From positions 1 through 41,582 of the forward strand of contig JBDKRC010000248.1 in NCBI GenBank assembly GCA_039683575.1: a stretch of DNA of 41,582 nt, read 5' to 3'. Both the position numbers and the translations under genes were made by a program. Position 1 is the stretch's first letter. Each line of letters opens with the position of its first letter. Positions 6,512 to 30,770 of the stretch are shown piece by piece. The DNA is from Armatimonadia bacterium. GTDB lineage: Bacteria; Armatimonadota; Zipacnadia; Zipacnadales; UBA11051. Under the pieces are notes generated by a model. It was not told where the DNA came from, made no database searches, and worked only from the letters and a program-made list of their open reading frames with translations.

Positions 6512-7996
6512 ATGGCTCACGCACACCATCTGCAGTCACCAGGCGCCTCCCTGACGCGCAGGCACTGGGCAATCTACATCACCGCAGCAGTGCTCGTGGC
6601 AAGCCTTGGCGCCGCAGCCGTCTTTGGCGACGCCACCATCATCATGGTGGCACCCATGGGTCTCGCCCTGGCTGCGACGGCCCTCCTGCAGCCATTCGCG
6701 GTCTACGTCGTAATGCTCTGCATGCTGTCTATTGTCCCCATCGAGAGCAGCTTCTTCACCCTCTACATCCCCAACTGGCTGCAGGCAGTGATACCTGCCC
6801 TGCTGCTCGGCACCGTGCTGTACAACGTCGTTCACCGCGAGCGCAAGGCCTTCAGCGCCAACTGGGCCGACGTCTTCGTCGTGGGGTTCATCGTCATTGG
6901 CTACCTGGGTGTCTTTCGCGAGCCGGGAAGTGTCAGCTACAAGTTCTTCACCAATCAGCAGGTTTTCCCGGCGCTGATGTACTTCATTGCCAAGTGGCTC
7001 CCCATCGACCGGGAGCGCTTCCGAAGCCAGCTAAGGCTGCAGCTCTTCTCAGTTACTCTCCTCTCGTTGATCATGGTCGGGCAGGTGGTGACAGGCTTTG
7101 ATCCCGTCTACCACGGCTTCTCATTCCTCGGGCTAGGTGGTCTCGCCCGGGGCCCCATGTGGTCAATCTCCGACACCGTCGCCTACACCAGCGTCTGGCC
7201 CGTCTTCTTTGTCTATGCCCTCGCCACCGGTCTTCCCGCACTTGGGCGGCGGCGGCGGACCTTCTGGGGTGTGGGCCTGGCGCTGGCAATCCTGGCGACA
7301 CTGGCGACGACAGAACGGACCGGCCCTGTCGCAGTGCTCGCTGCCTTTGCCATTGCCATGCTGCACCCACGCATGGGCAAGTACGTGATGATGACGGGGT
7401 TGGCGGCCCTGATCATCGCCCCGCTATGGCTGGTGAGCCCCGCCGGGCGCCACGTGGCGACGCGCATGAAGACGGTCAAGGAACAGGGGGCCGGTTTTGA
7501 GCGGATCATCTACCGCGACAAGGCCCTGCGCTACACCCGATCACCCCTCTGGAACCCAGTGTGGGGTACCGGCTTCGGGCGCATAAATGAACTGGCGGGC
7601 AAGACCATACCCGAAGATGACTGGGTATACGACTACAACTGGGGAGAGTTCCGCCTGCGCAAAGACTTTGCCTCGCGTCCGACGCACTGCGCGCCGGTGA
7701 CCCTCTATGCCGAGTACGGGTACGGCGGCATGCTGATGCTGACTCTTGCCGGAGTGATGATCGCCGCCGGTCTGGTGCGCACCGGACGCGTGGCGCGCCG
7801 CATGGGAGGGCGAGTGGACACAGCACTGGTCCTGGCCGGGACTGGAGCCCTCGTGACCGTCCTCGTCAACGGCGTACTTCACAACACGGAGGCGGTGGTT
7901 GAGGTACTCATCCTGCTCTGGAGCTTCGGCGGGATGGTAGTTGGCCATCCTGAGGTGTTCGTGATGCCCCGCCGTGCCGACCAGTCTCAAGCTTGA
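6512..7996 (+). CDS. Wzy polymerase / O-antigen ligase family membrane protein
   Basis: Polytopic protein with T..RT, a periplasmic loop R.IY...A....P.WGTGFG, and H.......AEYG..G (Wzy_C-type motifs). Confidence 0.82.
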   Translation: MAHAHHLQSPGASLTRRHWAIYITAAVLVASLGAAAVFGDATIIMVAPMGLALAATALLQPFAVYVVMLCMLSIVPIESSFFTLYIPNWLQAVIPALLLGTVLYNVVHRERKAFSANWADVFVVGFIVIGYLGVFREPGSVSYKFFTNQQVFPALMYFIAKWLPIDRERFRSQLRLQLFSVTLLSLIMVGQVVTGFDPVYHGFSFLGLGGLARGPMWSISDTVAYTSVWPVFFVYALATGLPALGRRRRTFWGVGLALAILATLATTERTGPVAVLAAFAIAMLHPRMGKYVMMTGLAALIIAPLWLVSPAGRHVATRMKTVKEQGAGFERIIYRDKALRYTRSPLWNPVWGTGFGRINELAGKTIPEDDWVYDYNWGEFRLRKDFASRPTHCAPVTLYAEYGYGGMLMLTLAGVMIAAGLVRTGRVARRMGGRVDTALVLAGTGALVTVLVNGVLHNTEAVVEVLILLWSFGGMVVGHPEVFVMPRRADQSQA

Positions 7997-8076: not shown

Positions 8077-10761
8077 ATGGCAGATCAGAAGTCGTTTTCC
8101 ATCATCATGGCCGCCGGCAAGGGCAACCGCATGAACTGCCCGGGCCAGAACAAGGTCTACCTCGAGATTGACGGTCTGCCTGCTGTCATCAGAGCCCTTG
8201 ACACCTACGAGAGTTGCGGTCTGGGCCACCACATCATCGTCGTCGGTGAGTGTGCCGACCAGGTCATGTCCGTTGTGGGCGAGCGCTTCCCAAACTGCAC
8301 GTTCGCCTACCAGCCAGTTCCGCTGGGCACGGGCAACGCCATCAAAGTAGGGGCCCGCGTCCTGCAAGATGCCGGCTATACCGGTCCCGTCTTCGTTACC
8401 GCCGGCGACAAGTACATCGAGGCAGACGTCGTTCGCGACCTGATCGCCCGCTTTGAGCAGGGCCAGCATGATCTGATGCTGGTCGCGGGCAGGAAGAACG
8501 ACTACCCGACCTCCGGACGGGTGCTTACGGACGACCAGGGTGCCCCCACAGCCATCGTGGAAGTGAGCGAGATACGTCTCTCCCGCGCCCTGCAGGAGAT
8601 TGAACCCCTCCTGGCGGGGCAGAACGTGAAGCCCCAGCCACTGCTCGAGATCATCCAGCGCCACTTCACCAACGAGAAGAAAGCCAAGGTCGCTTTCGGC
8701 GAGCTATGGCACCTCCTGCAGCCCAACGGCGAGGGGCCCGGCCATCCCGGCCTCCCCACCGCCAAGGTCCGCCCGTTGGTGGACAGCCTTCGCCACACGG
8801 TGACGCTCCCGCTGTGGCGCGGTGGCGAGATGACACCCATTCCCGCGTCCGAGGTCGAGGACATGACCGACCTCGCCAACATCTCGGTCTACATGTACAG
8901 CGCCCCGGCGCTATATCACAGCCTCGCCAAACTCGCCCGCGACAACGCGCAGCATGAGGAATTCCTGACCGACACCATCAAAATCCTGGCTTCCGAACGC
9001 AATGACGACGGCACGCCCACGTACCGCCTCGGAACTGTGGTCGTGGACGATCCCGAACTGGTAATGGGCTACAACACGCCAGAAGAGCTGGATACGATCC
9101 GCCAGGTTGTGACCCGTAAGGCAGCGGCGAAGGTTCAGGAGGACCTCCGCGAGTTGCGTCCGGTGAGCCAGTGGCACCACTTCTTTGCCGATGACGGCGC
9201 CGACATGCACCGCTTCATGGATGAGATTTACGGCCCGGACCGCGATCTTCACGCCCGCAAGCGCCAGGAATACCTCCACGCCCTGGAACTCTACCGCTCC
9301 CGCCTCGGCACCGACGATGAAGTGATGCTCATCCGCACTCCCGGACGCATCAACCTCATGGGCCGCCACACCGACCACCGGGGCAGCCGCACCAACATGA
9401 TCGCCATCAGCCAGGAAGTGCTGATGGTAGTGGCGCCGCGCGACGATGACCGTTTCCGCCTGTACAACTCCTCACCTGAAGCCTTTCAGGAAGCCAGCTT
9501 CAGCATCGGCGACGAGATCAGCCGTCTCGACTGGGGTGATTGGCTCGAGACCGTTCGCAGTCCCCGCACCATCGCCATGGTCAGCGACGGCCACTGGGCC
9601 AACTACGTCAAAGCCCCGGCCTTCCGCCTCCAGAAGGAGTTCCCAGATCAGGCGCTCCGTGGCGCGGACATTGTGATCCACGGCACCATCCCCGTTGGCT
9701 CGGGCCTGAGTTCCTCCTCAGCCATGGTCGTGGGTGCTGCCGAGGCTCTGATCGCGATCAATAGCCTTCCCGTCCGCCCCGCCGCCATGGTAGACCTCTG
9801 CGGCGAGGGAGAGTGGTTTGTCGGCACGCGTGGCGGCTCCAGCGACCATGCGGCGATCAAATTCGCACGCCGCGGCCAGGTCGCCCATGTCTCCTTCTTC
9901 CCCTTTGCTGTCCAGGGATTTGCCCCGTTCTTCGAGGACCACTCGCTCATCGTCTGCAATTCAGGCATTCAGGCCAAGAAGGCCCAGGGCGCCCGCCAGA
10001 CCTACAACAGCAAGGTCTTGGGCTATGTCATAGGCGAGTTGCTCTTCAGGCGCTTCAACCCCCAGTTCGCCGACCGGATCGAGCACCTGCGCGACCTCAA
10101 CTGCGAGAATCTGGGCATCGGCCTGGCCGACCTGTACGGTCTCCTGCGCAAGCTCCCGCTGCGGATGACCGAGCAGGAGTTGGACGGCCAGTATGGCCCG
10201 TTCGACCCGGCTGACGAAGACAAGCTCCGCAGCATCTTCTCCGGTCTCAGTGACCGCTCAGCGGCTTTTGACGTCCGCCCGCTGGTGATCTACGGTCTGG
10301 CCGAATGCGAGCGCAGCAAGCTCTGTTTCGACGTCCTGCAGCGTGGGGATGCTGAGGCACTCGGGCAGTTGTGGAATCTCTCCCACGACGGTGACCGCGT
10401 GGTCAGCCATGATACCAACTGGCGTCAGACGCCCTTTGCCGGCGACTGCTCGGACGAATACCTCGACCGTCTCGTCGCAGACCTGGAAAGCTCCGATCCT
10501 GCCCGGCAGGAGGCTGCCCAGTTGTACCGGCAGGTGGGCTGCTACGCCTGCAGTACTCCTGAGATAGATCTCATCGTCGACACAGCGCTCCGCACCCCCG
10601 GCGTCAAGGGTGCTCAGATCTCCGGAGCCGGCCTCGGTGGGTGCGTTATGATCCTCGCAGAGAACAGTAGCCGCGACGCAGCCGTCAGAACCTTTAGAAC
10701 AAGAAGCTTGGATACCGAGATTCAGGCTCCGGTGGCCGGTTCGGGCCTGGTCCGAGCGTGA
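8077..10761 (+). CDS. Bifunctional sugar-1-phosphate nucleotidyltransferase (GlmU-N-like) / GHMP sugar kinase (galactokinase-like) fusion
   Basis: N-terminal half: IMAAGKGNRM...K, PLGTGNA, NAQHEEFLTD, MGYNT. C-terminal half: PGRINLMGRHTDH, IPVGSGLSSSSA, GAQISGAGLGGC. Start ATG 8077. Confidence 0.88.
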   Translation: MADQKSFSIIMAAGKGNRMNCPGQNKVYLEIDGLPAVIRALDTYESCGLGHHIIVVGECADQVMSVVGERFPNCTFAYQPVPLGTGNAIKVGARVLQDAGYTGPVFVTAGDKYIEADVVRDLIARFEQGQHDLMLVAGRKNDYPTSGRVLTDDQGAPTAIVEVSEIRLSRALQEIEPLLAGQNVKPQPLLEIIQRHFTNEKKAKVAFGELWHLLQPNGEGPGHPGLPTAKVRPLVDSLRHTVTLPLWRGGEMTPIPASEVEDMTDLANISVYMYSAPALYHSLAKLARDNAQHEEFLTDTIKILASERNDDGTPTYRLGTVVVDDPELVMGYNTPEELDTIRQVVTRKAAAKVQEDLRELRPVSQWHHFFADDGADMHRFMDEIYGPDRDLHARKRQEYLHALELYRSRLGTDDEVMLIRTPGRINLMGRHTDHRGSRTNMIAISQEVLMVVAPRDDDRFRLYNSSPEAFQEASFSIGDEISRLDWGDWLETVRSPRTIAMVSDGHWANYVKAPAFRLQKEFPDQALRGADIVIHGTIPVGSGLSSSSAMVVGAAEALIAINSLPVRPAAMVDLCGEGEWFVGTRGGSSDHAAIKFARRGQVAHVSFFPFAVQGFAPFFEDHSLIVCNSGIQAKKAQGARQTYNSKVLGYVIGELLFRRFNPQFADRIEHLRDLNCENLGIGLADLYGLLRKLPLRMTEQELDGQYGPFDPADEDKLRSIFSGLSDRSAAFDVRPLVIYGLAECERSKLCFDVLQRGDAEALGQLWNLSHDGDRVVSHDTNWRQTPFAGDCSDEYLDRLVADLESSDPARQEAAQLYRQVGCYACSTPEIDLIVDTALRTPGVKGAQISGAGLGGCVMILAENSSRDAAVRTFRTRSLDTEIQAPVAGSGLVRA

Positions 10762-10769
10762 ACATATCC

Positions 10770-10849
10770 TGAGCGCGTGGTAGGCATACTCCACATGCTG
10801 GAACCCGCGTGGTGAGCCCGGCATACGGAATATGCCTACCACGCGCTCA
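10770..10849. repeat. REPIN-like inverted pair of GTAG REPs
   Basis: 32-bp arms TGAGCGCGTGGTAGGCATACTCCACATGCTGG and CCGGCATACGGAATATGCCTACCACGCGCTCA (4 mismatches) around a 16-nt loop. Confidence 0.8.
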
Positions 10850-10898
10850 ACAAGTGCGGCTATCGACTTCAATTATTTCGCTCGAACTGGTGGATGTG

Positions 10899-12224
10899 GT
10901 GGAAGCACAGCTAGAGGCACTATCGGAGCAGGAATACCTGCTCCAGCAATACAAGCTCCTCTCCCGGCAACTCGGTGAGGCCAAACGTGCAGGGCGTGAC
11001 CTCGCGCCCCTCAAGGCTGAGCACAAGCGCGTCTACGACCGACTGCAGGAGCTCGCCCCCCGCAAGGTACGCTCCAACCACGCTCCCGCTCCGCAGCTAC
11101 GCACCGAGGTCGTTACGGCCCCGGCCGACCTTCAGGCTCTCCGTCAGGAGTGGGACGACCTCCTGGCCCGCGCTGACAACTACTCTCCCTTCCTCACCTG
11201 GGAATGGTGGTGGCCCTGGGTCCGGCACTTCGGCCACCTTCACCAACCCTACCTCATACTCGCACGCGATCAGGACAACCGGCTCCTCGGCGGCCTTCCG
11301 CTCGCCCTCATGTCCGATAAGCTGCTCGGGTTCATGGGCTCGCGCAGTGGCCCGGATCCCGCCCACCTCGGCGTGCCACTTCATGCTTCCCACCGTACCG
11401 AAGCCCTGCAGGCGCTGATGGAGCGGGTTGCAGCCGACTGCGGCAAGCACTTCCCCGCCTGGCGCTGGGACCAATGCGCCGTGGATGGGCAACTCGGGGA
11501 CATCCTCTCCGCCGCTGCCCGCGCGGGCCTGCAGGCCAATCTTCAGGTCAAGCGACACTACGTCCACGGCGACCTTCCCGACACCTTTGACGCCTACGTC
11601 AGCAACGTTCCCAACAAGAATCGCCGCAACTACCTGCGCAACCAGTTCGAGCGCTTGGAGCGCGAATGGGCACGCCCGGTTCTGCGCGTGTTCACGGAGG
11701 CCTCCCACGAGACTGTTGACACCATCGCGCAGATGGCCCAGTACAACATCAGACGCCGCCAAACCCTCGGCGACTACAGCCGGTGGAACGCACCTGCCTT
11801 CAGCGACTGCCTCGACGACGTCATCCAGCTTTTCTCCGAACGCAACTGGCTTCGTCTCTACACCCTCACCATCGAGGGCCGTCTGGCCGCCGCCCTCCTC
11901 GGCTGGGCCTACCGAGGCACCTTCTTCGCCTACCAGATCGGCGAGACCGACGAGCATCCCGATCTGGGGCTCGGCCAATGCGTCATCAGCTACGCCATCA
12001 AGGGCAGCATCGAAGAAGGCCTCAAGCGCTTCGAGTTTCTCGGCGAAGCCCACCCGTTCAAGCAGACCTACTTCCCCGGCCTTACCGGCGCCGCCACAGT
12101 GCTGCTCGGCCGGGATGATTGCGCCTACTGGTCACGGTTAGGCTGGTCGAGCCTGCGCCGCGCGGTAGGCAGGAGACTGCGCAGGGCGGGCGTTTGGCCC
12201 GTCTCCAGCCACCAATCTTCGTAG
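10899..12224 (+). CDS. CelD/BcsL-type GNAT (Acetyltransf_6/FemAB-like fold) with an N-terminal SerRS-arm-like coiled coil
   Basis: EWDDLL...SPFLTWEWW..W, LP.TFD.Y, WLRLY.L...G...A, Y.IG, LG, G...FEFL.....K. The track start 10809 lies inside a REP, so GTG 10899 (or 10890) is more likely. Confidence 0.82.
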   Translation: MEAQLEALSEQEYLLQQYKLLSRQLGEAKRAGRDLAPLKAEHKRVYDRLQELAPRKVRSNHAPAPQLRTEVVTAPADLQALRQEWDDLLARADNYSPFLTWEWWWPWVRHFGHLHQPYLILARDQDNRLLGGLPLALMSDKLLGFMGSRSGPDPAHLGVPLHASHRTEALQALMERVAADCGKHFPAWRWDQCAVDGQLGDILSAAARAGLQANLQVKRHYVHGDLPDTFDAYVSNVPNKNRRNYLRNQFERLEREWARPVLRVFTEASHETVDTIAQMAQYNIRRRQTLGDYSRWNAPAFSDCLDDVIQLFSERNWLRLYTLTIEGRLAAALLGWAYRGTFFAYQIGETDEHPDLGLGQCVISYAIKGSIEEGLKRFEFLGEAHPFKQTYFPGLTGAATVLLGRDDCAYWSRLGWSSLRRAVGRRLRRAGVWPVSSHQSS

Positions 12225-18194: not shown

Positions 18195-19300
18195 AGGTCC
18201 TCACCCTCACCCATGAACTACCCCCCATCGGCGGCGGCGGCGGGCGCATCGCGCTCGAACTGGCGCGCCGTATGGCCGGGCTCGGCCATGAGATTGAGAT
18301 CGTGACCGCAGCCTGCGGCGACCTTCCGCTCGACGAAGTCCTGGACGGTGTTCGCATCCGCCGCCTCCCCTGCGGGCGCAAGCATCTCGAGTATTCCACC
18401 GGCACGGAGAAGGCCCGCTACATCGCTGCCGCGGTCAAGGCTCTCCAGCGTCAGGCGCTGGACTACGATCTCATCCACGCCCACTTCATACTTCCCGCGG
18501 GCCTCGTAGCGGCACTGCGCCCTCTGCCCTACCTCGTCACCTGCCACGGCTCCGACGTCCCCGGCCACAACCCCTACGAGGGCGCCTGGGAGCATCGTCT
18601 CATGCGCTCCCTGTGGCGCCGGGTCGTGGACCGCGCCGGGGCCATAGTCTCGCCGTCTCAGAACCTCTGCGACCTCCTGCTGCGAGTGGACCCGTCCCTG
18701 GACGCCAAACTCCACCGTATCCCCAACGGCTACCCATGCGGCAAGTTCGCCGAGAGCACCCATGAGGGCGGCATCCTCATGCTCAGCCGCCTGATCCCGC
18801 TCAAGGGCTTCCAGTGGTTTCTGCAGGGGCTTCAGGGCCTGGACCTCGGCGTAGACGTGAGCCTTGTGGGCGACGGCCCCATGCGCGCTGAACTCGAGGC
18901 TCTTGCCAATGAGACGCCGACTAAGGTGATCTTTCACGGCTGGTTGGATAACGACTCTCCGCGCCTGCGGGAGCTATTCGAGAGTGCCTCGATCTTCGTC
19001 TTCCCCTCGGAGGCAGAGAACTTCCCCACGGTCCTGCTTGAGGCGATGGACGCCGGCCTTGCCATCGTCACCACGAATGTAAAGGGATGCCCTGAGGTCA
19101 TCGGCCCCGCGGGCCTCACAGTACCGCCACGCTCGCCAGAGGCTCTCCGTGACGCAGTCCAGGGCCTCATCGGGGACCCCGAGCGTCGCCTCAGCCTCGG
19201 CCGCCAGGCTCATGCCCGGGTGCGCGCTGAATTCGACTGGTCGGTAGTGGAACGGCAGTACGAGGCGCTCTATGGGGCGGTGGCCAATGCCACCACCTGA
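18191..19300 (+). CDS. GT4 glycosyltransferase
   Basis: E.PPIGGG, HAHF.LP.G, HGSDVPG, IPNG, SRL...KG, FPS..ENFP.VLLEAM..GL. Confidence 0.92.
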   Translation: MKVLTLTHELPPIGGGGGRIALELARRMAGLGHEIEIVTAACGDLPLDEVLDGVRIRRLPCGRKHLEYSTGTEKARYIAAAVKALQRQALDYDLIHAHFILPAGLVAALRPLPYLVTCHGSDVPGHNPYEGAWEHRLMRSLWRRVVDRAGAIVSPSQNLCDLLLRVDPSLDAKLHRIPNGYPCGKFAESTHEGGILMLSRLIPLKGFQWFLQGLQGLDLGVDVSLVGDGPMRAELEALANETPTKVIFHGWLDNDSPRLRELFESASIFVFPSEAENFPTVLLEAMDAGLAIVTTNVKGCPEVIGPAGLTVPPRSPEALRDAVQGLIGDPERRLSLGRQAHARVRAEFDWSVVERQYEALYGAVANATT

Positions 19301-20876
19301 GCAAACCACCACGGCCACTCCCGAAGCGATCACCACGGCTCCCGCGTCAGTCCCTGCCGCCGTGCCCACCGAACAGGGCCGCCGCGCCGCCCGCAACATC
19401 CTGTGGTCCGGCTGGGGACAGATCTCAGTCGCCGCCGCCGGTATCGTCTGGCTCTTTACCGTGCCCCGCACGCTTGGCCCGCAGTACTACGGCATCTTCG
19501 TCCTGCTGAGCTCGCTCATTGACTTCCACACCATGGGGTGCACGCTCGGCGTTCAGAATGCCTTCGCCTATTACTTCCCGCTTCTGCGCACCCATCATCC
19601 GCGGCAACTCAGCCGTCTGACGACCGCCTACAGCCTGGTGGTTTTGGGGATAAGCCTGCCTGCCGCGTTTCTCATCGGCTGGCTCGGAATACGCCTCGGC
19701 GGCAATATTGTGACGGCGCTGCTGGCCGGGCTGGCCGCGCTGGCGGCACTCATTCAGGCAGCCAACGGCATCTTCGGCGCCATCCTCTACGGCGAGAACC
19801 GCATCGCCACCTATTCCGTACGCTTCCCGCTGCAGCAGGTTGTCACTACCGCCGCCGTGTTTGCCGGCGCGTGGTGGTTTGGGCTTAAGGGTTCCGTGGC
19901 AGGGCTGACAGCCGCCGTGGCAGTCATGCTACTCTGGCTTCTCGCGGTGGCTCGCCCGTGGCGCTATCTTGCTGCGCCGGCGGACACCGTCGCGAGACTG
20001 CAAGACGTGACTGCAGCCACTGACACGACCACCAATGATCCCCCTCGCCGCCTGCTCCGTCAGGCCCTGGTGTTTGGCCTATACTCCCTTTTCGGCGGCC
20101 TCGCCGCCCTCACCGTCACCCGCGGTGGCAACATCATCCTTGTCGGCGTGTGACTCAAGGCCGATGAGGTGGCCGTCTTCGCCGTCGGCCTCGGATTCGT
20201 GCTTCAGGGCGTCGTACTATTGTCGGCGCTCGGCACGGCCCTTACACCGGGACTCGCCAGTCTGATCTCCAAGGGCGAGCCAGGCCGCGCCGCCGACTGG
20301 GCACAACGCGCCGCCAGGTATCAGGCCTTCGCTGCCATTGTCGCCGTTGGCTTCGTGGCCTTCCTCGGCAAGCACCTGCTGTACGCCGCCGTAGGCAATC
20401 GCTTTCCTGGCGTTTTCACCATCACCATGATCGGCGCCGCAGCCCTGGTACCCATGGCGCAAACGAACCTCAGCAATCAGATGGCAATCGCCTGGGGCCG
20501 CCCGCGCATCACGATGGAAGCCTGGGTGCTGATGAGCGTGCTGTTCCTGACCGGCGCAGCCATCTACGGCTCTCTGGATGGCCCCGTCGGCGCCGCTCTC
20601 GCGCTGGTAGGCACAGCCTGGCTGACCTCCTTCCTGGTCAGTTGGCGGCTCAGGTCCTCTGGGGGGCCCGAAATGTGGAACTGGCCCGTAGTGAAGCTAC
20701 TGCTCGTTGCGACGCCGGGCTTCGCCGCGACGCTGCTCCCCGACACCATTCTCCTTAACGTCCTGCTATATGCCGGTTTCATCGTCTATCTCGCCCTCGT
20801 GGCCTTTATGACAAACACCATAACCCCCGCTGAGATCAGGGAGATCATCGGCGCGATACGCCACCGCGAACCCTGA
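19287..20876 (+). pseudogene. wzx: Second Wzx-type flippase, interrupted by one in-frame TGA at 20151-20153
   Basis: ORFs 19272-20153 and 20169-20876 share a frame. Read-through gives ...IILVGV*LKADEVAVFAVG..., a continuous 529-codon flippase. R.LGP..YG.F near the N-terminus and G..GAA.A near the C-terminus. Confidence 0.78.
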
Positions 20877-21102
20877 CGGGCCCCCTCACGCGCTTTTGGG
20901 CGCTTCTTTGGCCACTTCATACCCTCCCCTGAGCTTTCCCGGGCAAACTCGCTGCTGAGGTGAGACCAATGGCAGGTTCCAACACACGGGCCCGCTCTCG
21001 CCGGCCCGTGTTCGTTTGCCACGCCCTCGACTCGCAGGTAAAAAGCGTCCCTGGGGCGAAGCACGGAATTGTTGTCAGCATATCCGCCAGCGGAGGCCGA
21101 CT

Positions 21103-24100
21103 GTGAAGACCCTCTGGATCGCCCTTTCAGTCCTGACCTGCCTGACCGCTCTCGCCGCGCCCGTTCCTCCCGCCGATCAGAAACTATGGTTGCGGCACCT
21201 CATCCCTCTCCCCAAGCAGATTGAGTTCAAAGGCACCTTCCAGGTCGCACCGCAGGCCCTCAGCATAGAGACTGCCCCCGGTGTTGGCGACGTTGGACAG
21301 GCAGGAGCCGCGCTTCTCCGAAAGTCCCTGGGGCTTCCTGAAGATCAGGGCAAGACGCTTGCCAAGCCTCAGTTCACCATCACTTTCGCGCTATGCAACC
21401 CGAAGGACAAACGCGCAGTAACCGAGGCCGCTCAATTGGCCAAGCGCCCTAACTGCGAGCAGGCGTACGCCATCGTCCCCGGTAAGAACACCCTCGCCGT
21501 GGTCGCCCTGGATGAGCGCGGCCTGTACTATGGCGCCCTGACGCTCTCTCAACTGCTGCCCGTCAAGCAGACCCCGCAGCGCCTGGCGATCCCGATGGTC
21601 TCGGTCCTCGACTGGCCGGACCTCAACGAGCGCGGTCTGTGGGGCGGCAACGCGGTCAATGACATCGAGTGGATGTCGTCATACAAGATGAACCTCGTCG
21701 AGGCCCATGCGAACCTGAGCCTCAGCCCCGACGGCAAGGGAGTCGCCAAATTCAGCCCGGAAAAGGTCGAGGAGGGTCGCCTGCATGCCTTCAAGGTAGT
21801 CCCGGTGCTCACCCATCTGGACCAGATAGCCCCGCTTGGCGTCTTCGAGCGCTTCCCGGAGCTACAAGGCAAGGAGCCCGGCGCCAAGCTCCAGGGCCAC
21901 GCGTATGTGACCGCTCCGTGTGCCTCACAGCCGGGCTTCGTGAAGCTCCTCAGCGAGTGGATGACTGATCTAGTCACCATCCCCCACGTCACAGACATCT
22001 GCATCTGGCTCAGCGAAAACGATGTCCAGTGCGCCTGTGACCAGTGCAAGGCAATTGGCGAGTTCCCCGCCGAAACCCGCGCCTGCGTGCAGGCCTTCCG
22101 TATCGCCCAGAAGGCCAACCCCAACGCGCACCTCCGCATCCTGCTCACCCAGGGCAGCTACAAGACCAATGACAAGGTGCTGGCCGAAATCCCGGCTGAC
22201 GTCAATGTGAGCTACTACGACGGCGGCCGGACGTACGACTCGTCCCGCGATCCGATGATCTACCCCTTGCTTGAAGACTACGCGAAGAAGGGCCGCTGGC
22301 TTGGCGTCTACCCTCAGGTCACCGCTTCCTGGCGCATCGTCTGCCCGTGGAGCGGCCCGCAGTTCATGAAGTACCGCATGACTGAGTTCGTGGACAAGAA
22401 GCTGACCAACCTCTGCGGCTATGCCACGCCCCACAACCGCCTCTACGACTTCAACGTCACCGCCGCCGCCGAATGGGGCTGGAACGCCCACGGCCGCGAT
22501 GAGCGCGAATTCGCCGCCGCGTGGGCCACCAGACGCGCCGTCAATGATCCGGAGAAGGCTGCCGACTGGGCAGTGATGCTCGGGCCGGTCGGCTGGGACG
22601 TCTACGGCTCGCGTGTGCCCTACACCGCCTTCTTCGGCGAGGCTGGCCGCATGATCCAGAACCGCGCCAAGCCTGTCTTCGGCAAGGGCATGTACCGCTA
22701 CTTCCCCGACGAAAAGCACCTGGCGGACGATCTCGCCATCTGCGCCCGAGCCGCCAAACTCGCTGCCGATCTCAACGATCCGTGGATCACCGCCGAGACC
22801 CAGGTCATCTCGGGCTATGTCACGATGCTGACCAAGCTCAACGACCTCTCCGCTCTGATCTCACGGGCCACCCCTCCCACGGAAACCGAGCGTACCGGCC
22901 TGCAGCGCACTCTCCGCGAATTCGCCCAGGCGGGGATTGAGGTAAATGCGGGGCTACGCGCCTGGGAAGCCGCCTCTCTCGGCGGCAAGGGGGGCGGCCG
23001 TCTGCAGGACACGATGTCTGTGACCGACCAGACGGTGGATCAGGTCAGCAAGGCGCTCCTGCCCTTCGGCGTCCGCAACCCCTTCGCCCCCTACCTGGTG
23101 AAGACCGTCGGCGAGTACCACGACCGGGACTTCGAGGACAAGCAGGTGATAGTTAAGAAGCTCGACATCACCTCCGCCGTCTCAGGTGCCGGCACCTACC
23201 AGGTACGCTTCACCCACACCGAGGGCTACCACGGCGCCACTGTGCAGCGCGTGGCCATCGCCACGGCCCCCCACGGGCAGACCGAGCCCCTGACCGAGGT
23301 AGTCTTCGACAAGCACTACGGCTCCATCGGCTACACGCCCAAGGGCGAGACCTACACGCTGGCACTGCCGGCTTATGACGAGACCTCAGACTACTTCCTC
23401 GTGGTTGACATGAGCGGGGTGAAGTCCAGTGCCCAGCCCATGAGCCGCCGGGGCATCAACGGGACCATCACCATGTGGAAGGAGCAGACGCCCGGCGAGG
23501 CTATCCCGGACCTCCCGCTCCTGCCCATGAGCGATGCCGAGAAGGCCCGCTACGGCGGGCCGAAGTTCACACAAGGCGGGGTACGCGTGGGAGTGCTGCA
23601 GGGCGGCTACGGCGCAGAGGCCTTGCTGAAATACCTGCAGGGCAAGCCCGGCATCGATGCGCAGCCCCTGTGGCTCGTCAACGCAGCGAACCTCAAGCCC
23701 TGCCAGGTGCTCATCGTGCCGCAGCCCTACCTGCCCGAGACCTACGCGCCGGCGATAGCGGCCCTCCTGACGAGATTCGTCACCGAGGGCGGCGGGGTAC
23801 TGACCCTGCACAACTCGGTTGGCTACCGCGGCCTGCCCGTCGCGGTGCCGGAGGTATGCGCCAAGGGCGTGACCCACATCAAGGACCCGGGGTGGCACCT
23901 AACGCCCGACACGACCCTCGCCACGGGCCTGCAGCGCGGCCGCACTCTCACGCAGAGCTACTATGACTACATCGTGCTGGAACCGGGCTCAAAGGGGACA
24001 GTAGTGGCCACCGGCGCCGCAACCGGCCGTCCGGTAATCGTCTTGGGGGAAACCGGCAAGGGGCGCTACGTAGCCTCCGGTCTCGGCACCTGCATCGGCC

Positions 24101-24183
24101 CAGGCGCCGACCAGGATGTCCCCCCGACTGAAGATGAAGGAGTATTCCTGCAAAACGCGGTGAAGTGGCTGGGAAAGCAATAG
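21103..24183 (+). CDS. Secreted multidomain glycoside hydrolase-like protein (GH20 N-terminal domain, TIM barrel, C-terminal ThuA/GATase-like domain)
   Basis: Signal peptide from GTG 21103 (GGAGG RBS). LIPLPKQI, EQAY.I, RGLYYG..TL.QL, DWPDL.ERG, KMN (GH20-N pattern), CACDQC, and C-terminal FV.EGGG.L.LH...G.GR.V. Confidence 0.7.
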   Translation: MKTLWIALSVLTCLTALAAPVPPADQKLWLRHLIPLPKQIEFKGTFQVAPQALSIETAPGVGDVGQAGAALLRKSLGLPEDQGKTLAKPQFTITFALCNPKDKRAVTEAAQLAKRPNCEQAYAIVPGKNTLAVVALDERGLYYGALTLSQLLPVKQTPQRLAIPMVSVLDWPDLNERGLWGGNAVNDIEWMSSYKMNLVEAHANLSLSPDGKGVAKFSPEKVEEGRLHAFKVVPVLTHLDQIAPLGVFERFPELQGKEPGAKLQGHAYVTAPCASQPGFVKLLSEWMTDLVTIPHVTDICIWLSENDVQCACDQCKAIGEFPAETRACVQAFRIAQKANPNAHLRILLTQGSYKTNDKVLAEIPADVNVSYYDGGRTYDSSRDPMIYPLLEDYAKKGRWLGVYPQVTASWRIVCPWSGPQFMKYRMTEFVDKKLTNLCGYATPHNRLYDFNVTAAAEWGWNAHGRDEREFAAAWATRRAVNDPEKAADWAVMLGPVGWDVYGSRVPYTAFFGEAGRMIQNRAKPVFGKGMYRYFPDEKHLADDLAICARAAKLAADLNDPWITAETQVISGYVTMLTKLNDLSALISRATPPTETERTGLQRTLREFAQAGIEVNAGLRAWEAASLGGKGGGRLQDTMSVTDQTVDQVSKALLPFGVRNPFAPYLVKTVGEYHDRDFEDKQVIVKKLDITSAVSGAGTYQVRFTHTEGYHGATVQRVAIATAPHGQTEPLTEVVFDKHYGSIGYTPKGETYTLALPAYDETSDYFLVVDMSGVKSSAQPMSRRGINGTITMWKEQTPGEAIPDLPLLPMSDAEKARYGGPKFTQGGVRVGVLQGGYGAEALLKYLQGKPGIDAQPLWLVNAANLKPCQVLIVPQPYLPETYAPAIAALLTRFVTEGGGVLTLHNSVGYRGLPVAVPEVCAKGVTHIKDPGWHLTPDTTLATGLQRGRTLTQSYYDYIVLEPGSKGTVVATGAATGRPVIVLGETGKGRYVASGLGTCIGPGADQDVPPTEDEGVFLQNAVKWLGKQ

Positions 24184-25471: not shown

Positions 25472-25727
25472 TAAGGGTTTTCGAAAGGCCGCCTAAGGTT
25501 TTACGAAGCGGTTGTCGGGGTATACTCACCCACAAGGCGTTGTGGCGTTGGCAGTGCCCCGCAGGTCCCCGCTGTTCAGCCCACGCAGTACGAAGCAAAT
25601 CCAACGGTTCCCCCAAAGTCGTGGCCTGTTTGTGTTGCAGCTCTCTTTTGTAGCGCTGCTTTCGAGAGGTTGTGCTTCCCGGAGCCGTCGAGGACGGATT
25701 GGTTTCGCACTGCTAAGGGATTTCGAA
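25472..25727. promoter_or_regulatory. Three copies of a 14-bp motif in the divergent promoter region
   Basis: TAAGGGTTTTCGAA (25472), TAAGGTTTTACGAA (25494, +22 bp) and TAAGGGATTTCGAA (25714). Confidence 0.45.
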
Positions 25728-25814
25728 CAGCGGGGTAGGGGATTGGCGGAGATCTGGCGAGAGAGGAGGTGGAGGCCCAATGCGCTCGACAGGCTCAACA
25801 TTCAGGAGGAACAG

Positions 25815-28391
25815 ATGTATCAATCAGGCCATAGGAATGCTCCGACTGCCGTCGCTGTGGCGATCGACACCCATTCTCTCAACCGGAGCCTCCACACCAG
25901 CAGCGTGCTGTGGATGCTTCTCTTGCTGCTCGCTGCCTCTTTCTTCGCTTTCGCTCTTCCGGCGCACAGCGCCACGTATTATGTAGCCACCAATGGCAGT
26001 GACGATGCCGCCGGTACCAGCAGCACCCCCTGGCGCAACATCAACCACGCCGTCCCCCTGCTCCAGTCCGGAGATGTTCTCATCATCCGTGACGGCACCT
26101 ACAACGAATATGTAGACCTCGACCTACTGGCCAAGGCCTCTCCCGCCATCACCATTCAGGCTGAGAATCCCCGCAAGGCGATCATCAACTCCGGCAACGA
26201 CAACTCCATTGGTATCGGAGCCTGGCAGCCCGTGCAGGGCGTGCGCCTCGTCGGCCTCAAGGTCATCAGCGGCAAGATGGGTATCTGTTTCTACCGCGGC
26301 GGCGATGGCATGGACGTCATCAACTGCGAAGTGTCCGGCGGTATCGAGGGCATTCGCATCCCCGACGGCAGCAACCTCAAAATTCAGGACTGCTACGTGC
26401 ATGACAACAACCAGGGCGTGCTCCTGGGCGTCAAGGACAGCTCCGGCGTCTCCAACATTCTCATCGAGCGCGTGGTATCCGCCAACAATGCCTACGCAGG
26501 CCAGACCGGCAATACCGACGGTTTCGCCGTTGAGGGCATGTGCACGAACCTCGTCATCCGCGACTGCGTCTCCTACGGCGCTGGCGACAGCGGCTTTGAC
26601 CTGAAGCCGAGTGACGTGCTGATCGAGCGCGTGCTTTCCTACAATAATGCCGGCATGGGCATCAAGCTCTGGGGCAATAACGTCAAGGTCGTAAATGCCA
26701 TAGTCTATGGCAACAAGATTGACGGCATCGCCACGGCGGGCACTGGCCTGCAGTTCTACAACTGCACCATCGCCAACAATGCCTCCAACGGCATCCGCCT
26801 GGAGACCACCAGCCCCAGCACTGTTACGCTTCGCAACAATATCATCTACAACAACCCCGTCCAAACATACGGCTCGACGCTGTGGAACGACGACTACAAC
26901 CACTACTACTCGACCTCCGGCGACTACGTCATTCGCACCGCCGGCGCAACCTATACCCATTCGCAGGTCGCTTCTCACACCGCGCCTGTCGGCAGCCATT
27001 CCAGCGGTGGCGATCCCGTATTCGTGGGCCCGTCGAGTGCCAACTTCCGGCTGTCATCGACCAGTCCGTGCATCGGCACCGGCGTTGCTTCGAGCCTCGC
27101 GACCGTGGACTACTACGGCACCACGCGCAACAACCCGCCCGATAAGGGCGCCATCGCTGCCTCCGGTACCACGGCCGTAATCCCGACTGCACCGACCGGC
27201 GTCAGCATCACGCCCAGTGGCTCGACTGGCGTGGACACCGATCTCACCGCCCTCGCCACCGGCAGCACCGCCAGCAACGGCTCCACCGCTACCTACCAGT
27301 ACCAGTGGGCCAAGAGCACCGATGGCGGCACTACCTGGGGCGCCTGGGGCAACACCGGCGCCACCCTCGCCAAGAGCAATCTTGCCGACGGCCAGGTCTG
27401 GAAGGCTCACGCCCGCGCAACTGTTGACAATGCCAACTACAGCGCCTGGACTGAGAGCGCCACTGTCACCATCACCACGGGCACCGCGAGCGCTGTAGCC
27501 GCGCCGAGCCAGGTCGCGATTACGCCCGGCAGCCCCACTGACAACGACAACCTCAGCGCTTCAGCCAACGGGGGCGGCGTGACGGGCAAGAGCCCGAGCT
27601 ACACCTTCCAGTGGTCCAAGAGCGCCTCTGGCAGCACCAGCTGGTCAGCGTGGGGTTCGGCCGGTTCGGTCTACACCGCGTCCAACACCGCTGCCGGTGA
27701 CCGCGTCAAGGCCCGGGCCTGTGTTGTGGACGGCACGAGCACCAGCGCGTGGACCGAGAGCGCCGTCGTTACGATCGCCAGTGGTACCACCACCACCACG
27801 CCTGTGCGCCCGACCAGCGTGGTCGTCACGCCCGGCGCACCGACGGACACCCAGAACCTCGTTGCTACCGCTTCACCTGCGGCCCCGGCCGGTATCACGT
27901 ATATCTACCAGTGGCGCAAAATGGACGCGGGCAGCAAGAAGTGGAGTTCCTGGGGCTGGACCGGGCAGACGCTGAGCGCTTCAGTGACCAGTCCCGGCCA
28001 GAAGTGGCAGGCTCGCGTCCGCGCCACCGATGGCACCACACTCACTAGTGGCCGGGCGAGCAACGCCGTGACCATCCAGGCCGCCACGAGCACCACGCAG
28101 GTAGGTCCTGGCGCCCCCACCGTCACAATCTCGCCGACCGCGCCGACTGATGGCTCAACCCTCACCGGCTATGCTACCGCCACCGACGCCAATGGCGACA
28201 CGCTCGAGTACGAGTTCTACTGGGCTCGCAGCACCGATGGCGGCCGGACCTGGGGCGGGTGGAACTACTACGGCAAGACCCTGTCCGCCTCCCAGACCAG
28301 CGTCGGCGATTGCTGGAAGGTCCAGAGCCGCGCCCATGACGGTCAGGTCTGGGGCCCCTTCGCCCAGAGCGCTGCGGTCACCATCAGATAG
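25815..28391 (+). CDS. Secreted right-handed parallel beta-helix protein (pectate-lyase-like) with four C-terminal Ig-like repeats
   Basis: AGGAGG RBS before ATG 25815. Signal peptide ending AHS-ATYYVATNGSD...PW..I..A...GD....RDGTY, beta-helix repeats, GDP.FV...NFRL...SP.IG.G...PD.GA, then four ~100-aa repeats. Confidence 0.85.
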   Translation: MYQSGHRNAPTAVAVAIDTHSLNRSLHTSSVLWMLLLLLAASFFAFALPAHSATYYVATNGSDDAAGTSSTPWRNINHAVPLLQSGDVLIIRDGTYNEYVDLDLLAKASPAITIQAENPRKAIINSGNDNSIGIGAWQPVQGVRLVGLKVISGKMGICFYRGGDGMDVINCEVSGGIEGIRIPDGSNLKIQDCYVHDNNQGVLLGVKDSSGVSNILIERVVSANNAYAGQTGNTDGFAVEGMCTNLVIRDCVSYGAGDSGFDLKPSDVLIERVLSYNNAGMGIKLWGNNVKVVNAIVYGNKIDGIATAGTGLQFYNCTIANNASNGIRLETTSPSTVTLRNNIIYNNPVQTYGSTLWNDDYNHYYSTSGDYVIRTAGATYTHSQVASHTAPVGSHSSGGDPVFVGPSSANFRLSSTSPCIGTGVASSLATVDYYGTTRNNPPDKGAIAASGTTAVIPTAPTGVSITPSGSTGVDTDLTALATGSTASNGSTATYQYQWAKSTDGGTTWGAWGNTGATLAKSNLADGQVWKAHARATVDNANYSAWTESATVTITTGTASAVAAPSQVAITPGSPTDNDNLSASANGGGVTGKSPSYTFQWSKSASGSTSWSAWGSAGSVYTASNTAAGDRVKARACVVDGTSTSAWTESAVVTIASGTTTTTPVRPTSVVVTPGAPTDTQNLVATASPAAPAGITYIYQWRKMDAGSKKWSSWGWTGQTLSASVTSPGQKWQARVRATDGTTLTSGRASNAVTIQAATSTTQVGPGAPTVTISPTAPTDGSTLTGYATATDANGDTLEYEFYWARSTDGGRTWGGWNYYGKTLSASQTSVGDCWKVQSRAHDGQVWGPFAQSAAVTIR
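27180..28388 (+). repeat. Four intragenic ~100-aa Ig/FnIII-like repeats
   Basis: Each unit reads P..V.I/V(T/S)P...T....L...A...Y.(Y/F).W.(K/R)....W..W...G......G..(W)K...(R)A.(V)DG.......VTI. Approximate starts 27180, 27500, 27800 and 28105. Confidence 0.8.
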
Positions 28392-28539: not shown

Positions 28540-29523
28540 GTGTCGTTGAGGCTGAAGAGGTTGGTCCAGAAGGCGGCCTTTTCCAGCGGATTCACTGCCT
28601 CATGGGGGCACCGCCGGCATTCACGCGTCGGGATCGCCACGCTGGAGATCTTCTACGGGCACCACGTCTTGCCGGATGATGCCCAGGCTCCCGACCTGAA
28701 GTCCTCGCAGCTTCGCGAGCGTCTTGATTACCTCCGTCGCACCCGTGATCTCGTTACCTTCGACGACGGCCTCGCCGCCCTGGAGAGGCCCAAGGACCGC
28801 CTTCGTCTGGCCGCTCTGACGTTTGACGACGGCTACCGGGACAATCTCCACACCCTGCTCCCGATTCTCCGGGATTCCAGCACGCCGGCGCTCATTTACG
28901 TCTCGACTGGACCGATCATGCAAGGCTGCGGCCTGTGGTTCGACCAGGTGCGCACCGCCCTCCGCCTCAGCCGCCTGACTGCGCTTAACCTCCCGTGGCT
29001 AAGCGAGCGCTTCAGCGACAACATCAGCCTTACCTACATGGCCATGGAGAGGCTCCGCCGCTTGGGACCGGCTGAACGACAGACCCGGGTGGAGGAGCTA
29101 CTCAATGCCGTCCCTGCCGAATGCCGTACGCTGCTGCCTCACCAGGAGATGCTGACGGTGCCGGAACTGCAGGAGTTGGCTGCCGATCCGCTTATCACCA
29201 TCGGTGCCCACACCCACAGCCACAGCGTCCTCTCCTCCTGCTCTGAGACCGAGGCACGCACCGATCTTCAGGACAACCTTACCACTCTGCAACTCCTCCT
29301 TGGACAACAGCCCATACACTTCGCTTACCCCAACGGTCAGCCGGCTGATTTCACTGCCCGCGACCAGGCTCTGCTGCGCGAATCTGGTCTTACCACGGCC
29401 ACTACGACTGTCCGTGGGCTCAACCTGCCCGGAGTAGACCCGTTCGCCCTGCCCCGCAGTCCCCTGGGAGAAGGGCCGGTTGACCGCTTTGCCTGGCAGA
29501 TTGAGAGGGGAGCGCTGGAATGA
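28540..29523 (+). CDS. Polysaccharide deacetylase (NodB/CE4)
   Basis: LTFDDGYRDN, IGAHTHSH..L, FAYPNG...DF, T..G.N. GGGGAGG RBS. Confidence 0.9.
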   Translation: MSLRLKRLVQKAAFSSGFTASWGHRRHSRVGIATLEIFYGHHVLPDDAQAPDLKSSQLRERLDYLRRTRDLVTFDDGLAALERPKDRLRLAALTFDDGYRDNLHTLLPILRDSSTPALIYVSTGPIMQGCGLWFDQVRTALRLSRLTALNLPWLSERFSDNISLTYMAMERLRRLGPAERQTRVEELLNAVPAECRTLLPHQEMLTVPELQELAADPLITIGAHTHSHSVLSSCSETEARTDLQDNLTTLQLLLGQQPIHFAYPNGQPADFTARDQALLRESGLTTATTTVRGLNLPGVDPFALPRSPLGEGPVDRFAWQIERGALE

Positions 29524-30770
29524 CTCCCAACGATACCAAACTACGGCTACAGGAGCTCTCGCGCACCATCGCAAAGGCTAGGGCGGAGGGCAGCGACGCT
29601 TCCGACCTTATCGCCCAACACCAGACCCTGCGCCGGCAGCTTACCAACGGCCAGCATCCGCCCAGGAAACACGGGCCCCCGTCTCTCAGACTTGAGGTAC
29701 TTACCAGCCTCGACGGCCTCCCTCCGACCGACTATGAAGACCTCCTCGCGGAGTCGGAGACAGTCTCACCATTCATGACGCTCAACTGGCTCGAGCCCTG
29801 GTACGCCGCCTACGGAGGTGACTACGACCTGCATCTGGTTGTCGTCCGCCAGGGCGACAGGCTCCTGGCTGCTCTCCCCCTGATGATTGGCATGGAGCGG
29901 CGACACGGCTTGCGGCGCCGGGTGGCGCGATTTGTCGGCACGGGCCCGGGCCTGCGCGGCAACTACTTCTCGATGCCGCTGCGCTCGGGCGCGGCAGAAC
30001 AGACCGGCGACCTGCTCAACGAGCACCTCGAGAGCCTGCTCGAGCGTGTCACGCTGGTACTGGAGAACCTCTCGCCTTTCGCTGACGGCCTCACGACCCT
30101 CAGGCTGCTGTGTCGCCAGCCTCACCGCGCCATATCGCTCACTACACAGATAGGCTGTGTTCATGGTTCCCTTCCGGACACTTTCGACAAGTTCATCCAG
30201 AGTGTGCCGACGGCGACGCGCCGCACTTCCCTCCGCCACGGCGACGCCCCGCTCAGGCAGCATGGAGACGTGGAGTACAGAGTTTGTCGGCGTTCAGAAC
30301 AGATCCCCGAATTCCTCGATTCCCTCGGCCGTCTCAGCGTCCAGCGACGCGCCCGTGAGGGGCAGCAGAGCACCTGGGCGGTGAGGCAAAACACCGAGGC
30401 ACGAGAGCAAGTATGTGCACGATTTCTCGCTGACGACCGCCTCCGCCTGGAGTTGCTCACGTACGATAAGAAGCCAATCGCTGCGCTCATCGGCTTTGTT
30501 TACAGCAACATCTACTTCTGCTACAATATGGCCCTAGACCAGGCATTTTCCGACTACCAACCCGGACATTTGCTCCTGGCCTGGCGCATCAGACAATCCA
30601 TCGACGAGGGTCTGACTGGCTTCAACTTCCTCGTCGGTGATGCAGATTATAAGCGGCAATACTTCAGACAGGTGCTCCCGGAGCTTACGGCGACGGTTCT
30701 ACCGTCCCGCGGCGTGCAGCACTGCTTTGAGGGAGCTTGTCAGTTCTTACGTGGCCTGAGGAAGTTGTAG
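29520..30770 (+). CDS. CelD/BcsL-type GNAT with an N-terminal SerRS-arm-like coiled coil
   Basis: SPF.T..WL..W, LPDTFD.F, L.L..L.....PIA, Y.PG.LL....I..SI.EG...F.FL.GD..YK. ATGA overlap with the deacetylase stop. Confidence 0.85.
   Translation: MTPNDTKLRLQELSRTIAKARAEGSDASDLIAQHQTLRRQLTNGQHPPRKHGPPSLRLEVLTSLDGLPPTDYEDLLAESETVSPFMTLNWLEPWYAAYGGDYDLHLVVVRQGDRLLAALPLMIGMERRHGLRRRVARFVGTGPGLRGNYFSMPLRSGAAEQTGDLLNEHLESLLERVTLVLENLSPFADGLTTLRLLCRQPHRAISLTTQIGCVHGSLPDTFDKFIQSVPTATRRTSLRHGDAPLRQHGDVEYRVCRRSEQIPEFLDSLGRLSVQRRAREGQQSTWAVRQNTEAREQVCARFLADDRLRLELLTYDKKPIAALIGFVYSNIYFCYNMALDQAFSDYQPGHLLLAWRIRQSIDEGLTGFNFLVGDADYKRQYFRQVLPELTATVLPSRGVQHCFEGACQFLRGLRKL

Follow-up and report, generated by a model that had tools for sequence, protein, structure and literature searches.

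The 41,582-nucleotide contig JBDKRC010000248.1 of an Armatimonadia bacterium (assembly GCA_039683575.1), hereafter called the window, carries a gene for an 894-residue protein that we firmly predict from its sequence to be bifunctional, joining a GlmU-type pyrophosphorylase to an anomeric sugar kinase of the GalK type. In galactokinases the signature Glu binds the C6 hydroxyl of the sugar; the window protein has Arg in its place. As the substrate we favor a sugar that is acidic at C6, to which we assign a probability of roughly 0.4, with N-acetylgalactosaminuronic acid (GalNAcA) or N-acetylglucosaminuronic acid (GlcNAcA) the most likely and galacturonic acid (GalA) or glucuronic acid (GlcA) less likely.

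Architecture and sugar-binding signature of the fused protein

The open reading frame (ORF) runs uninterrupted on the + strand from either 8065 (GTG) or 8077 (ATG) to 10761, and the 894 residues are counted from the ATG in the ORF list and its translation. This ATG is the likely start, because GGAG lies ~12 nt upstream of it and the equivalent Met begins the protein in all aligned homologues (28/28). A Pfam scan placed NTP_transf_3 at residues 9–155 (3.6e-13; 9–156 together with NTP_transferase), GalKase_gal_bdg at 405–454 (2.3e-10), GHMP_kinases_N at 509–596 (1.1e-13) and GHMP_kinases_C at 813–871 (4.1e-9), and returned no Hexapep (beta-helix) match in the 894-residue protein. The AlphaFold2 model, for which 29 family sequences were used (mean predicted local distance difference test [pLDDT] score 88.6; predicted template modeling score 0.61), displayed an alpha/beta nucleotidyltransferase with a helical insertion, a three-helix linker (residues 363–409) and a GHMP kinase domain. 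Model helices at residues 163–241 fall in the region of the insertion, and the glmU profile covers 8101–8661 (profile positions 4–182) and 8875–9138 (profile positions 165–245) but leaves the gap between them unmatched. The linker travels with the kinase gene where the two halves are encoded separately: the kinase of a split paralogue in the same genome aligns from residue 360, and standalone kinases of 520–560 residues align from ~360. Since full-length homologues are found at E = 0 down to 31% identity and the model is of the confidence given above, the ORF is not a chance frame. A first-pass annotation, made from the letters of the window alone, had described one 894-residue ORF fusing a GlmU-like pyrophosphorylase without the beta-helix to a GHMP kinase, and Pfam, the homologues and the model confirm this description.

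Human N-acetylgalactosamine (GalNAc) kinase, GALK2, was the best match of the kinase half both by sequence against the PDB (2a2c, 8.5e-26, with human galactokinase next at ~3e-18) and by fold. With Foldseek, 2a2c came out on top (E 3.2e-23; template modeling [TM] score on the target 0.80), followed by GALK1, Gal1p/Gal3p and Pyrococcus GalK, and the TM scores on the target against galactokinases were 0.76–0.82. Identity to GALK2 is only ~20%. PDB chains of GlmU match the N-terminus at 2e-14. Every NCBIfam equivalog matched by the protein falls under its cut-off: the galactokinase equivalog TIGR00131 (gal_kin) scored 109.2 bits against 226.65, the remaining galactokinase equivalogs were likewise low, and the GlmU equivalogs matched residues 5–174 with 105 bits against 611. 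The window kinase shares with GALK2 (PDB 2a2c/2a2d) and GalK/GALK1 the GHMP fold, a GalK-type signature region, R424, D590 and ATP motifs II and III; it differs in its Glu-to-Arg and Tyr-to-His changes and its large extra insertions, and in that kinases of its family are fused to, or encoded beside, a nucleotidyltransferase. The N-terminal half shares with GlmU the pyrophosphorylase motifs (G-x-G-x-R-M loop, Lys, Gln, GTG-A, GD and NAQ-E--LTD) but lacks the left-handed beta-helix acetyltransferase and contains the ~90-residue helical insertion.

We examined conservation in 29 aligned sequences out of the 47 proteins returned by the homologue search, reaching down to 33% identity. Twelve nucleotidyltransferase residues (G14, R18, K26, Q79, G84, T85, D111, E162, N268, N290, Q292 and E294) and eight kinase residues (P422, G423, R424, N426, L427, G429, R430 and H431) are invariant (29/29), and D590 is kept in ≥90% of the sequences. 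R424 lines up with the conserved Arg of GalK/GALK2 and D590 with their catalytic Asp, and ATP motifs II (PVGSGLSSSSA) and III (SGAGLGGC) are intact, the stretches GSGLSSS and GAGLGG being invariant or nearly so. Because catalytic and substrate-binding residues are invariant and these motifs are preserved, both halves look catalytically competent. By homology, phosphorylation would be anomeric and the nucleotide probably uridine triphosphate (UTP) rather than GTP, as Q79 and G84 resemble the GlmU residues that we take to be those for UTP use.

The GalK signature G-R-x-N-[LI]-x-G-E-H-x-D-Y does not occur in the protein, which has GRINLMGRHTDH; the canonical GalK of the same genome, an internal control, reads GRLNLLGEHTDYN and keeps GEHTDY. 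An altered kinase motif had been noted at ~9340–9384 in the first-pass annotation, and it is confirmed there as PGRINLMGRHTDHRG (residues 422–436; nt 9340–9384). R430 stands for the signature Glu and H434 for the Tyr, given the residue-by-residue alignment of the query (pgrinlmgrhtdhrg) with GALK2 (pgrvniigehidycg) and GALK1 (pgrvnligehtdyn). The loss of Glu is the hallmark of the family, since no member was seen to have it, so that the change first noticed in one protein holds family-wide. Among the first 167 proteins, 56 fit the strict pattern (54 with Arg, 2 with Met) and 111 did not, mostly for want of the kinase start. Newly added representatives fit the motif pattern in 110 of 141 cases (R 95, M 7, V 3, K 2, S 1, N 1, T 1), the other 31 falling outside it, and 80 compared loci had Arg in 77 and Ser in 3 (L011, L023 and L035). 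In a FastTree phylogeny, the sequences with Met, Val or Thr group into a single clade of standalone kinases. Arg is the ancestral and dominant state, yet not an obligatory one. The earlier argument that Arg suits a C6 carboxylate therefore keeps its first part, the loss of Glu, and is weakened in its second, the specificity of Arg, which the Met clade and the Ser loci do without. R585, considered as a second family-specific Arg near the sugar, was rejected, as the genome's own GalK also has Arg there (FVGVRCGIMDQ).

Distribution and genomic partners of the family

A word-indexed search yielded 47 proteins including the query, nearly all of 790–1020 residues with both domains (74–31% identity), and one close relative is named in its source as coming from an Armatimonadota metagenome-assembled genome. 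When 50%-identity representatives were searched exhaustively, the matches numbered 8562 at E ≤ 1e-3, 2760 at 1e-10 and 429 at 1e-30. In species-representative genomes, at least 596 stretches fit the patterns and at least 579 encode a relative. The 80 loci kept for comparison from these ≥596 stretches span Armatimonadota, Planctomycetota (including Ca. Kuenenia), Verrucomicrobiota, Spirochaetaceae, Hydrogenedentota, Chloroflexota, Acidobacteriota, Omnitrophota and others. Within its own phylum, the kinase was found at E ≤ 1e-60 in 41 of 151 sampled genomes, where frames of ~800–920 residues are fused forms and those of 530–620 residues split ones. In a FastTree phylogeny that takes in 152 kinase domains and uses the genome's own GalK as root, a long branch leads to the family, within which fused forms are mixed with split ones; some of the "split" labels are truncated gene calls.

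Many catalogued members of ≤490 residues (P0052, P0053, P0055, P0059, P0068, P0083, P0084 and P0074 among the short proteins of this kind) begin at the internal Met of NLMGRH ("MGRH"), which removes the first kinase strand. We rejected a split or recoded gene as their explanation and read them as truncated gene calls, because closely related proteins in the loci compared are encoded by normal, full-length ORFs. Fourteen long relatives (945–1314 residues) were scanned and carried no Pfam domain beyond NTP-transferase and GHMP-kinase; in P0268 and P0277 (1307–1314 residues) and P0298 (1129 residues), the C-terminal kinase comes after 600–770 residues without a Pfam match (1e-5). One source labels many members "N-acetylgalactosamine kinase", an automatic name, and the names of the family are at present only generic or probably wrong automatic ones. 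No paper describing the fusion family was found in the literature searched.

None of the 29 window ORFs that were scanned (9 of them without any Pfam match) matched Epimerase or UDPG_MGDP_dh at E ≤ 1e-4, which bears out the first-pass remark that a nucleoside diphosphate (NDP)-sugar dehydrogenase or epimerase gene is lacking there; an epimerase gene does adjoin a split paralogue elsewhere in the genome. A true GlmU (559.8 bits) and a true GalK are encoded separately in the assembly (6.23 Mb in 352 contigs; 96.4% complete), whose second, split copy of the module lies on a 19.4-kb contig, C9 (locus L095 1–19424), in another polysaccharide locus (Table 1). The C9 epimerase, a short-chain dehydrogenase/reductase (SDR), matched WbpP (1.2e-80), the capsular protein 10ke and WbgU in the PDB, and its best NCBIfam match was TviC, a uridine diphosphate (UDP)-GlcNAcA 4-epimerase (254.5 bits, under the 760 cut-off). 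A second SDR, divergent from the module, had human UDP-glucuronate decarboxylase as its best PDB match (1.1e-45); in NCBIfam it matched UDP-4-keto-pentose/UDP-xylose synthase (146.8 bits; cut-off 294), LegB (134.6) and ArnA (129.3), and it carries STSEVYGK and YACSK.

Clustering of ORFs from the 80 loci and the window placed 16 ORFs from 13 loci in one SDR (epimerase) cluster. An ORF ≥53% identical to the C9 epimerase is present in 10 loci (L001, L004, L005, L006, L007, L014, L023, L025, L035 and L045) and is the immediate neighbor of the module in 9 of these 10. An ArnA/UXS-like SDR is also present in L023 and L035, where it is divergently placed and 69% identical to the C9 SDR, and in L006, 9 kb upstream and 50% identical. 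We conclude firmly that the family partners a 4-epimerase of the WbpP/TviC type and acts in polysaccharide loci of Armatimonadota. No neighbor other than the epimerase was clearly recurrent across the 80 loci, and contexts were otherwise heterogeneous, including GFO/IDH/MocA oxidoreductases (8), Fkp-like genes (4) and sulfatases (4). In Spirochaetaceae (L015, L037 and L054), the fusion is the last gene of an operon with an ATP-binding cassette (ABC) sugar transporter, an AGE-family protein, a PIG-L deacetylase and Amidohydro_2, and in L015 a TRAP DctP binding protein follows it.

In the genome of L014 (G120), the exosortase-type locus that holds the fused gene also contains, 10 kb downstream of it, two nucleotide-sugar dehydrogenase genes, one UDP-glucose-dehydrogenase-like and one UDP-ManNAc/TviB-like, and so uronates belong to such loci in at least one relative. 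An XrtA-like exosortase gene of this G120 locus (L104 13879–14961; 144.6 bits, under the 208 cut-off) links this type of polysaccharide locus to the PEP-CTERM/exosortase system. A genuine Fkp-like gene of 1023 residues (Fucose_pyrophosphorylase plus GHMP kinase) was found at 13665–16733 of L003, and Fkp-like genes lie within a few kb of the fusion in four loci (L003, L006, L025 and L051); two distinct one-polypeptide sugar-activating enzymes are therefore encoded side by side.

Candidate sugars and the weighing of alternatives

In the function we propose, the C-terminal GHMP kinase would use ATP to phosphorylate C1 of a free hexose-type sugar, and the N-terminal GlmU-like domain would then couple the sugar-1-phosphate to UMP from UTP, yielding a UDP-sugar for the glycosyltransferases of the surrounding polysaccharide locus. 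Elsewhere in the genome, and in relatives, the product would also go to the WbpP/TviC-type 4-epimerase. Were the sugar acidic, the module would be a dehydrogenase-independent route to a UDP-uronate. An acidic sugar is favored by three observations: Glu is universally lost, the partners are TviC-like and ArnA/UXS-like, and the ArnA/UXS-like partner occurs in genomes in which there is no dehydrogenase that could provide a UDP-uronate. An N-acetylhexosaminuronic acid (HexNAcA), or a neutral N-acetylhexosamine (HexNAc), is likelier than GalA or GlcA because the nearest relatives are enzymes of N-acetyl sugars (GALK2, GlmU and WbpP/WbgU/TviC). The first-pass annotation had suggested that free GalA, GlcA or HexNAcA is turned directly into an NDP-uronate; this is partly supported, in that the neighbors on C9 and the lack of a dehydrogenase suggest UDP-uronate chemistry, while GalA and GlcA have lost ground in view of the N-acetyl relatives. 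Rather doubtful, in our estimate, is a broader proposal, namely that bacteria widely make UDP-(N-acetyl)hexuronates from free sugars and so bypass the NDP-sugar 6-dehydrogenases. A Glu-less GalK-like kinase and a GlmU-like uridylyltransferase, fused or split, would here feed a TviC-type 4-epimerase and an ArnA/UXS-type decarboxylase.

Plant galacturonokinase, GalAK, is reportedly a standalone GHMP kinase, GalK-like but without the signature Glu, whose substrate is a uronic acid; it is said to have Ala, not Arg, at that position. Two one-polypeptide systems also resemble the fusion. Fkp of Bacteroides fragilis, an L-fucokinase/GDP-fucose pyrophosphorylase, takes a free sugar to an NDP-sugar and has the same logic and order, an N-terminal pyrophosphorylase followed by a C-terminal GHMP kinase (PMC11982464, PMC6468028). 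It is not homologous to the window protein as a fusion: the window kinase is of the GalK type, and PF07959 (Fucose_pyrophosphorylase), present in the Fkp-like gene of L003 (1.4e-55), is absent from the window protein. Zebrafish DrGKUP, a glucuronokinase/UDP-GlcA pyrophosphorylase of 619 residues, converts GlcA to UDP-GlcA on one eukaryotic polypeptide, again with an N-terminal bacterial-type nucleotidyltransferase and a C-terminal GHMP kinase; its kinase is of the GlcAK type, the protein is eukaryotic only, and bacterial homologues of its nucleotidyltransferase domain are reported unfused (PMC3938481). The concept of one polypeptide that takes a free uronate to a UDP-uronate is therefore already known from DrGKUP. 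New here are the bacterial GlmU-like/GalK-like lineage, its signature and its partners, which are not described in the literature searched.

The distribution of UDP-sugar dehydrogenases bears on an acidic substrate. The window's own genome (G000, at the completeness given above) had no match to PF03721 or PF00984 of the UDP-glucose/GDP-mannose dehydrogenase family, in a search whose controls were positive in 13/14 (PF03721) and 11/14 (PF00984) named genomes. The genomes of L023, L035, L001 and L005 gave marginal matches only (best E ≥ 1.4e-5), and that of L006 several strong ones. With a strong match defined by our own threshold as best E < 1e-25 (the search cut-off itself counts 141/151), PF03721 was found in 133 of 151 phylum genomes. 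Complementarity between the kinase and these dehydrogenases was considered and rejected, as a strong match occurred in 35 of 41 kinase-bearing and 98 of 110 kinase-lacking genomes. In the window's own order, 10 of 12 genomes were without a strong match, 7 of these without the kinase; because the absence holds with or without the kinase, it is a trait of the lineage (order) and not a compensation. The ArnA/UXS-like SDR was present in 43 of 151 genomes, and 40 of these 43 had a dehydrogenase, equal to the 93% background. Myo-inositol oxygenase, a source of GlcA, gave no match in the genome, nor in any control genome.

Several points weigh against an acidic sugar. The dehydrogenase counts show that the module does not act as a general substitute for dehydrogenases, the source of a free HexNAc-uronate is left unexplained, and the WbpP/TviC epimerase family also uses neutral UDP-N-acetylglucosamine (UDP-GlcNAc) and UDP-GalNAc. 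Arg is not essential, one clade having Met, and two of the three loci with a decarboxylase-like neighbor (L023 and L035) have Ser; the placement of R430 relative to C6 is itself read from the alignment. The decarboxylase-like SDR on C9 is under every NCBIfam cut-off, and dTDP-glucose 4,6-dehydratase scored nearly as high for it as the UDP-xylose synthase family (142.7 versus 146.8 bits). We take its STSEVYG to be the Ser-Glu form of UXS/ArnA and not the Asp-Glu form of 4,6-dehydratases. The Spirochaetaceae operon fits neutral amino-sugar salvage as well, and no biochemical data for any family member were found in the literature.

Such salvage, a Leloir-like conversion of GalNAc or GlcNAc to HexNAc-1-phosphate and on to UDP-HexNAc, interconverted by the WbpP-type epimerase, is a strong rival, if in our judgment less probable than an acidic sugar; on this view the Arg would be a feature of the pocket peculiar to the lineage. 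It would parallel NahK/GalT/GalE in bifidobacteria, and likewise GALK2 and UAP of animals. GALK2 is the best relative by sequence and fold, many members bear the automatic GalNAc kinase label, the nucleotidyltransferase is GlmU-like, the neighboring epimerase resembles the UDP-GlcNAc/GalNAc 4-epimerases WbpP and WbgU (1e-76 to 1e-80), and the Spirochaetaceae operon with its ABC sugar transporter, AGE-family protein and PIG-L deacetylase, together with the lack of complementarity with dehydrogenases, points the same way. Yet GALK2 and GalK retain the Glu that is never seen in the family, and GALK2 is as distant as noted above. A dedicated kinase/nucleotidyltransferase pair in two polysaccharide loci would moreover be unneeded for UDP-GalNAc, because the epimerase alone can make it from UDP-GlcNAc and the genome has a canonical GlmU, and the ArnA/UXS-like neighbor in a genome without a dehydrogenase would be left unexplained.

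Some other sugar, whether 6-deoxy, 6-substituted, a carboxyl-bearing amino sugar such as N-acetylmuramic acid, or a different one in each clade, we regard as unlikely. The signature position does behave like a specificity position, varying by clade (mostly Arg, with Met in one clade and sporadic Val, Ser, Thr, Lys and Asn), all NCBIfam equivalogs are under their cut-offs, and contexts outside Armatimonadota are mixed (GFO/IDH/MocA, sulfatase, TRAP DctP, SSF symporter, LpxA, GT9 and GH127). Nothing positive speaks for any particular alternative of this kind, however, and the Armatimonadota clade of the window gene has a consistent context of polysaccharide loci and a 4-epimerase. It is very improbable that one domain is catalytically dead and serves only in regulation or scaffolding: beyond the scores of both domains under family cut-offs and the helical insertion of the nucleotidyltransferase, nothing specific suggests it, and it is opposed by the invariant catalytic and substrate-binding residues of both domains and by the occurrence of the halves as adjacent separate genes, in this genome as elsewhere, an arrangement typical of two working pathway enzymes.

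Oxidation of UDP-sugars is regarded as almost the only origin of the uronic acids in bacterial surface polysaccharides. If the substrate is indeed acidic, a kinase/pyrophosphorylase route in hundreds of species (of Armatimonadota, Planctomycetota, Verrucomicrobiota, Spirochaetota, Hydrogenedentota, Chloroflexota and other phyla) would be a second entry point to uronates. It would account for the uronate-dependent enzymes encoded by genomes without a UDP-sugar 6-dehydrogenase, and lineages lacking that enzyme could still make acidic or pentosamine-containing exopolysaccharides. Whichever sugar is used, one polypeptide that takes a free sugar to a UDP-sugar would lend itself to the enzymatic synthesis of nucleotide sugars in one pot.

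The polysaccharide locus of the window

The fused gene sits in a long polysaccharide locus whose genes lie on the same strand. This locus encodes glycosyltransferases of families GT2 and GT4, with more GT4s downstream, a Wzx-like flippase, two Acetyltransf_6 proteins, a hexapeptide acetyltransferase, a PMT_2-like protein, a protein with a GH20b domain, a beta-helix protein, a polysaccharide deacetylase and a Wza-type exporter. Homologues of the membrane protein encoded immediately upstream of the fusion occur in the related loci L001, L005 and L014, and homologues of the Acetyltransf_6 neighbor downstream in L001 and L014.

Table 1. Coordinates of the fused gene, its parts and neighbors in the window, and of the genes on contig C9
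Feature	Sequence	Position	Strand	Evidence or remark
494-residue polytopic membrane protein, candidate Wzy-type polymerase (upstream neighbor)	window	6512..7996	+	no Pfam match
Predicted bifunctional nucleotidyltransferase / GHMP sugar kinase, 894 residues (whole gene)	window	8077..10761, stop included	+	ORF, Pfam, homologues, model
GlmU-like sugar-1-phosphate nucleotidyltransferase domain, ~residues 1–350, without acetyltransferase beta-helix	window	8077..9126	+	Pfam, NCBIfam and PDB matches
Helical insertion of ~90 residues within the nucleotidyltransferase domain, ~residues 176–266	window	8602..8874	+	missing from GlmU profile
Alpha-helical linker, ~residues 355–410	window	9140..9306	+	model helices H363–371, H375–385, H389–409
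GalK/GalNAc-kinase-like GHMP anomeric sugar kinase domain (predicted), C-terminal	window	9307..10758	+	Pfam, PDB, Foldseek
Altered sugar-binding signature PGRINLMGRHTDHRG, residues 422–436	window	9340..9384	+	translation
GHMP ATP-binding motif II PVGSGLSSSSA, residues 539–549	window	9691..9723	+	G543, S547 and S548 invariant
GTRGGSSDH loop; D590 aligns with catalytic Asp of GalK/GALK2	window	9823..9849	+	alignments
Acetyltransf_6 protein, FemAB/GNAT-like (downstream neighbor)	window	10809..12224	+	PF13480 at 3.4e-20
WecA-type transferase fused to GT4 domain	C9	2193-3731	−	
Wzy_C protein	C9	3770-5131	−	
Three GT2	C9	5158-8024	−	
Two proteins	C9	8024-10983	−	no Pfam match
SDR epimerase, WbpP/TviC-like	C9	11129-12058	−	
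Kinase	C9	12082-13752	−	46% identical to window kinase; GRINLMGRHVDHR
Nucleotidyltransferase	C9	13724-14905	−	44% identical to window protein
SDR, ArnA/UXS-like, divergent from the module	C9	14980-16245	+	
Wza-type exporter	C9	16460-19207	−	

The second Acetyltransf_6 (FemAB/GNAT-like) gene of the window lies at 29520–30770 (+). A 1055-residue protein with a GH20b domain only (21016–24183, +) and a 959-residue protein with a right-handed beta-helix (25512–28391, +) are candidate polymer-trimming or polymer-degrading enzymes that may release free sugar. Finally, a second Wzx-like (Polysacc_synt) gene at 19272–20876 (+) is broken by an in-frame TGA at 20151–20153, and its frame resumes in an ORF at 20169–20876 (293 + 235 residues); this interrupted gene could represent a pseudogene, a sequencing error or recoding.

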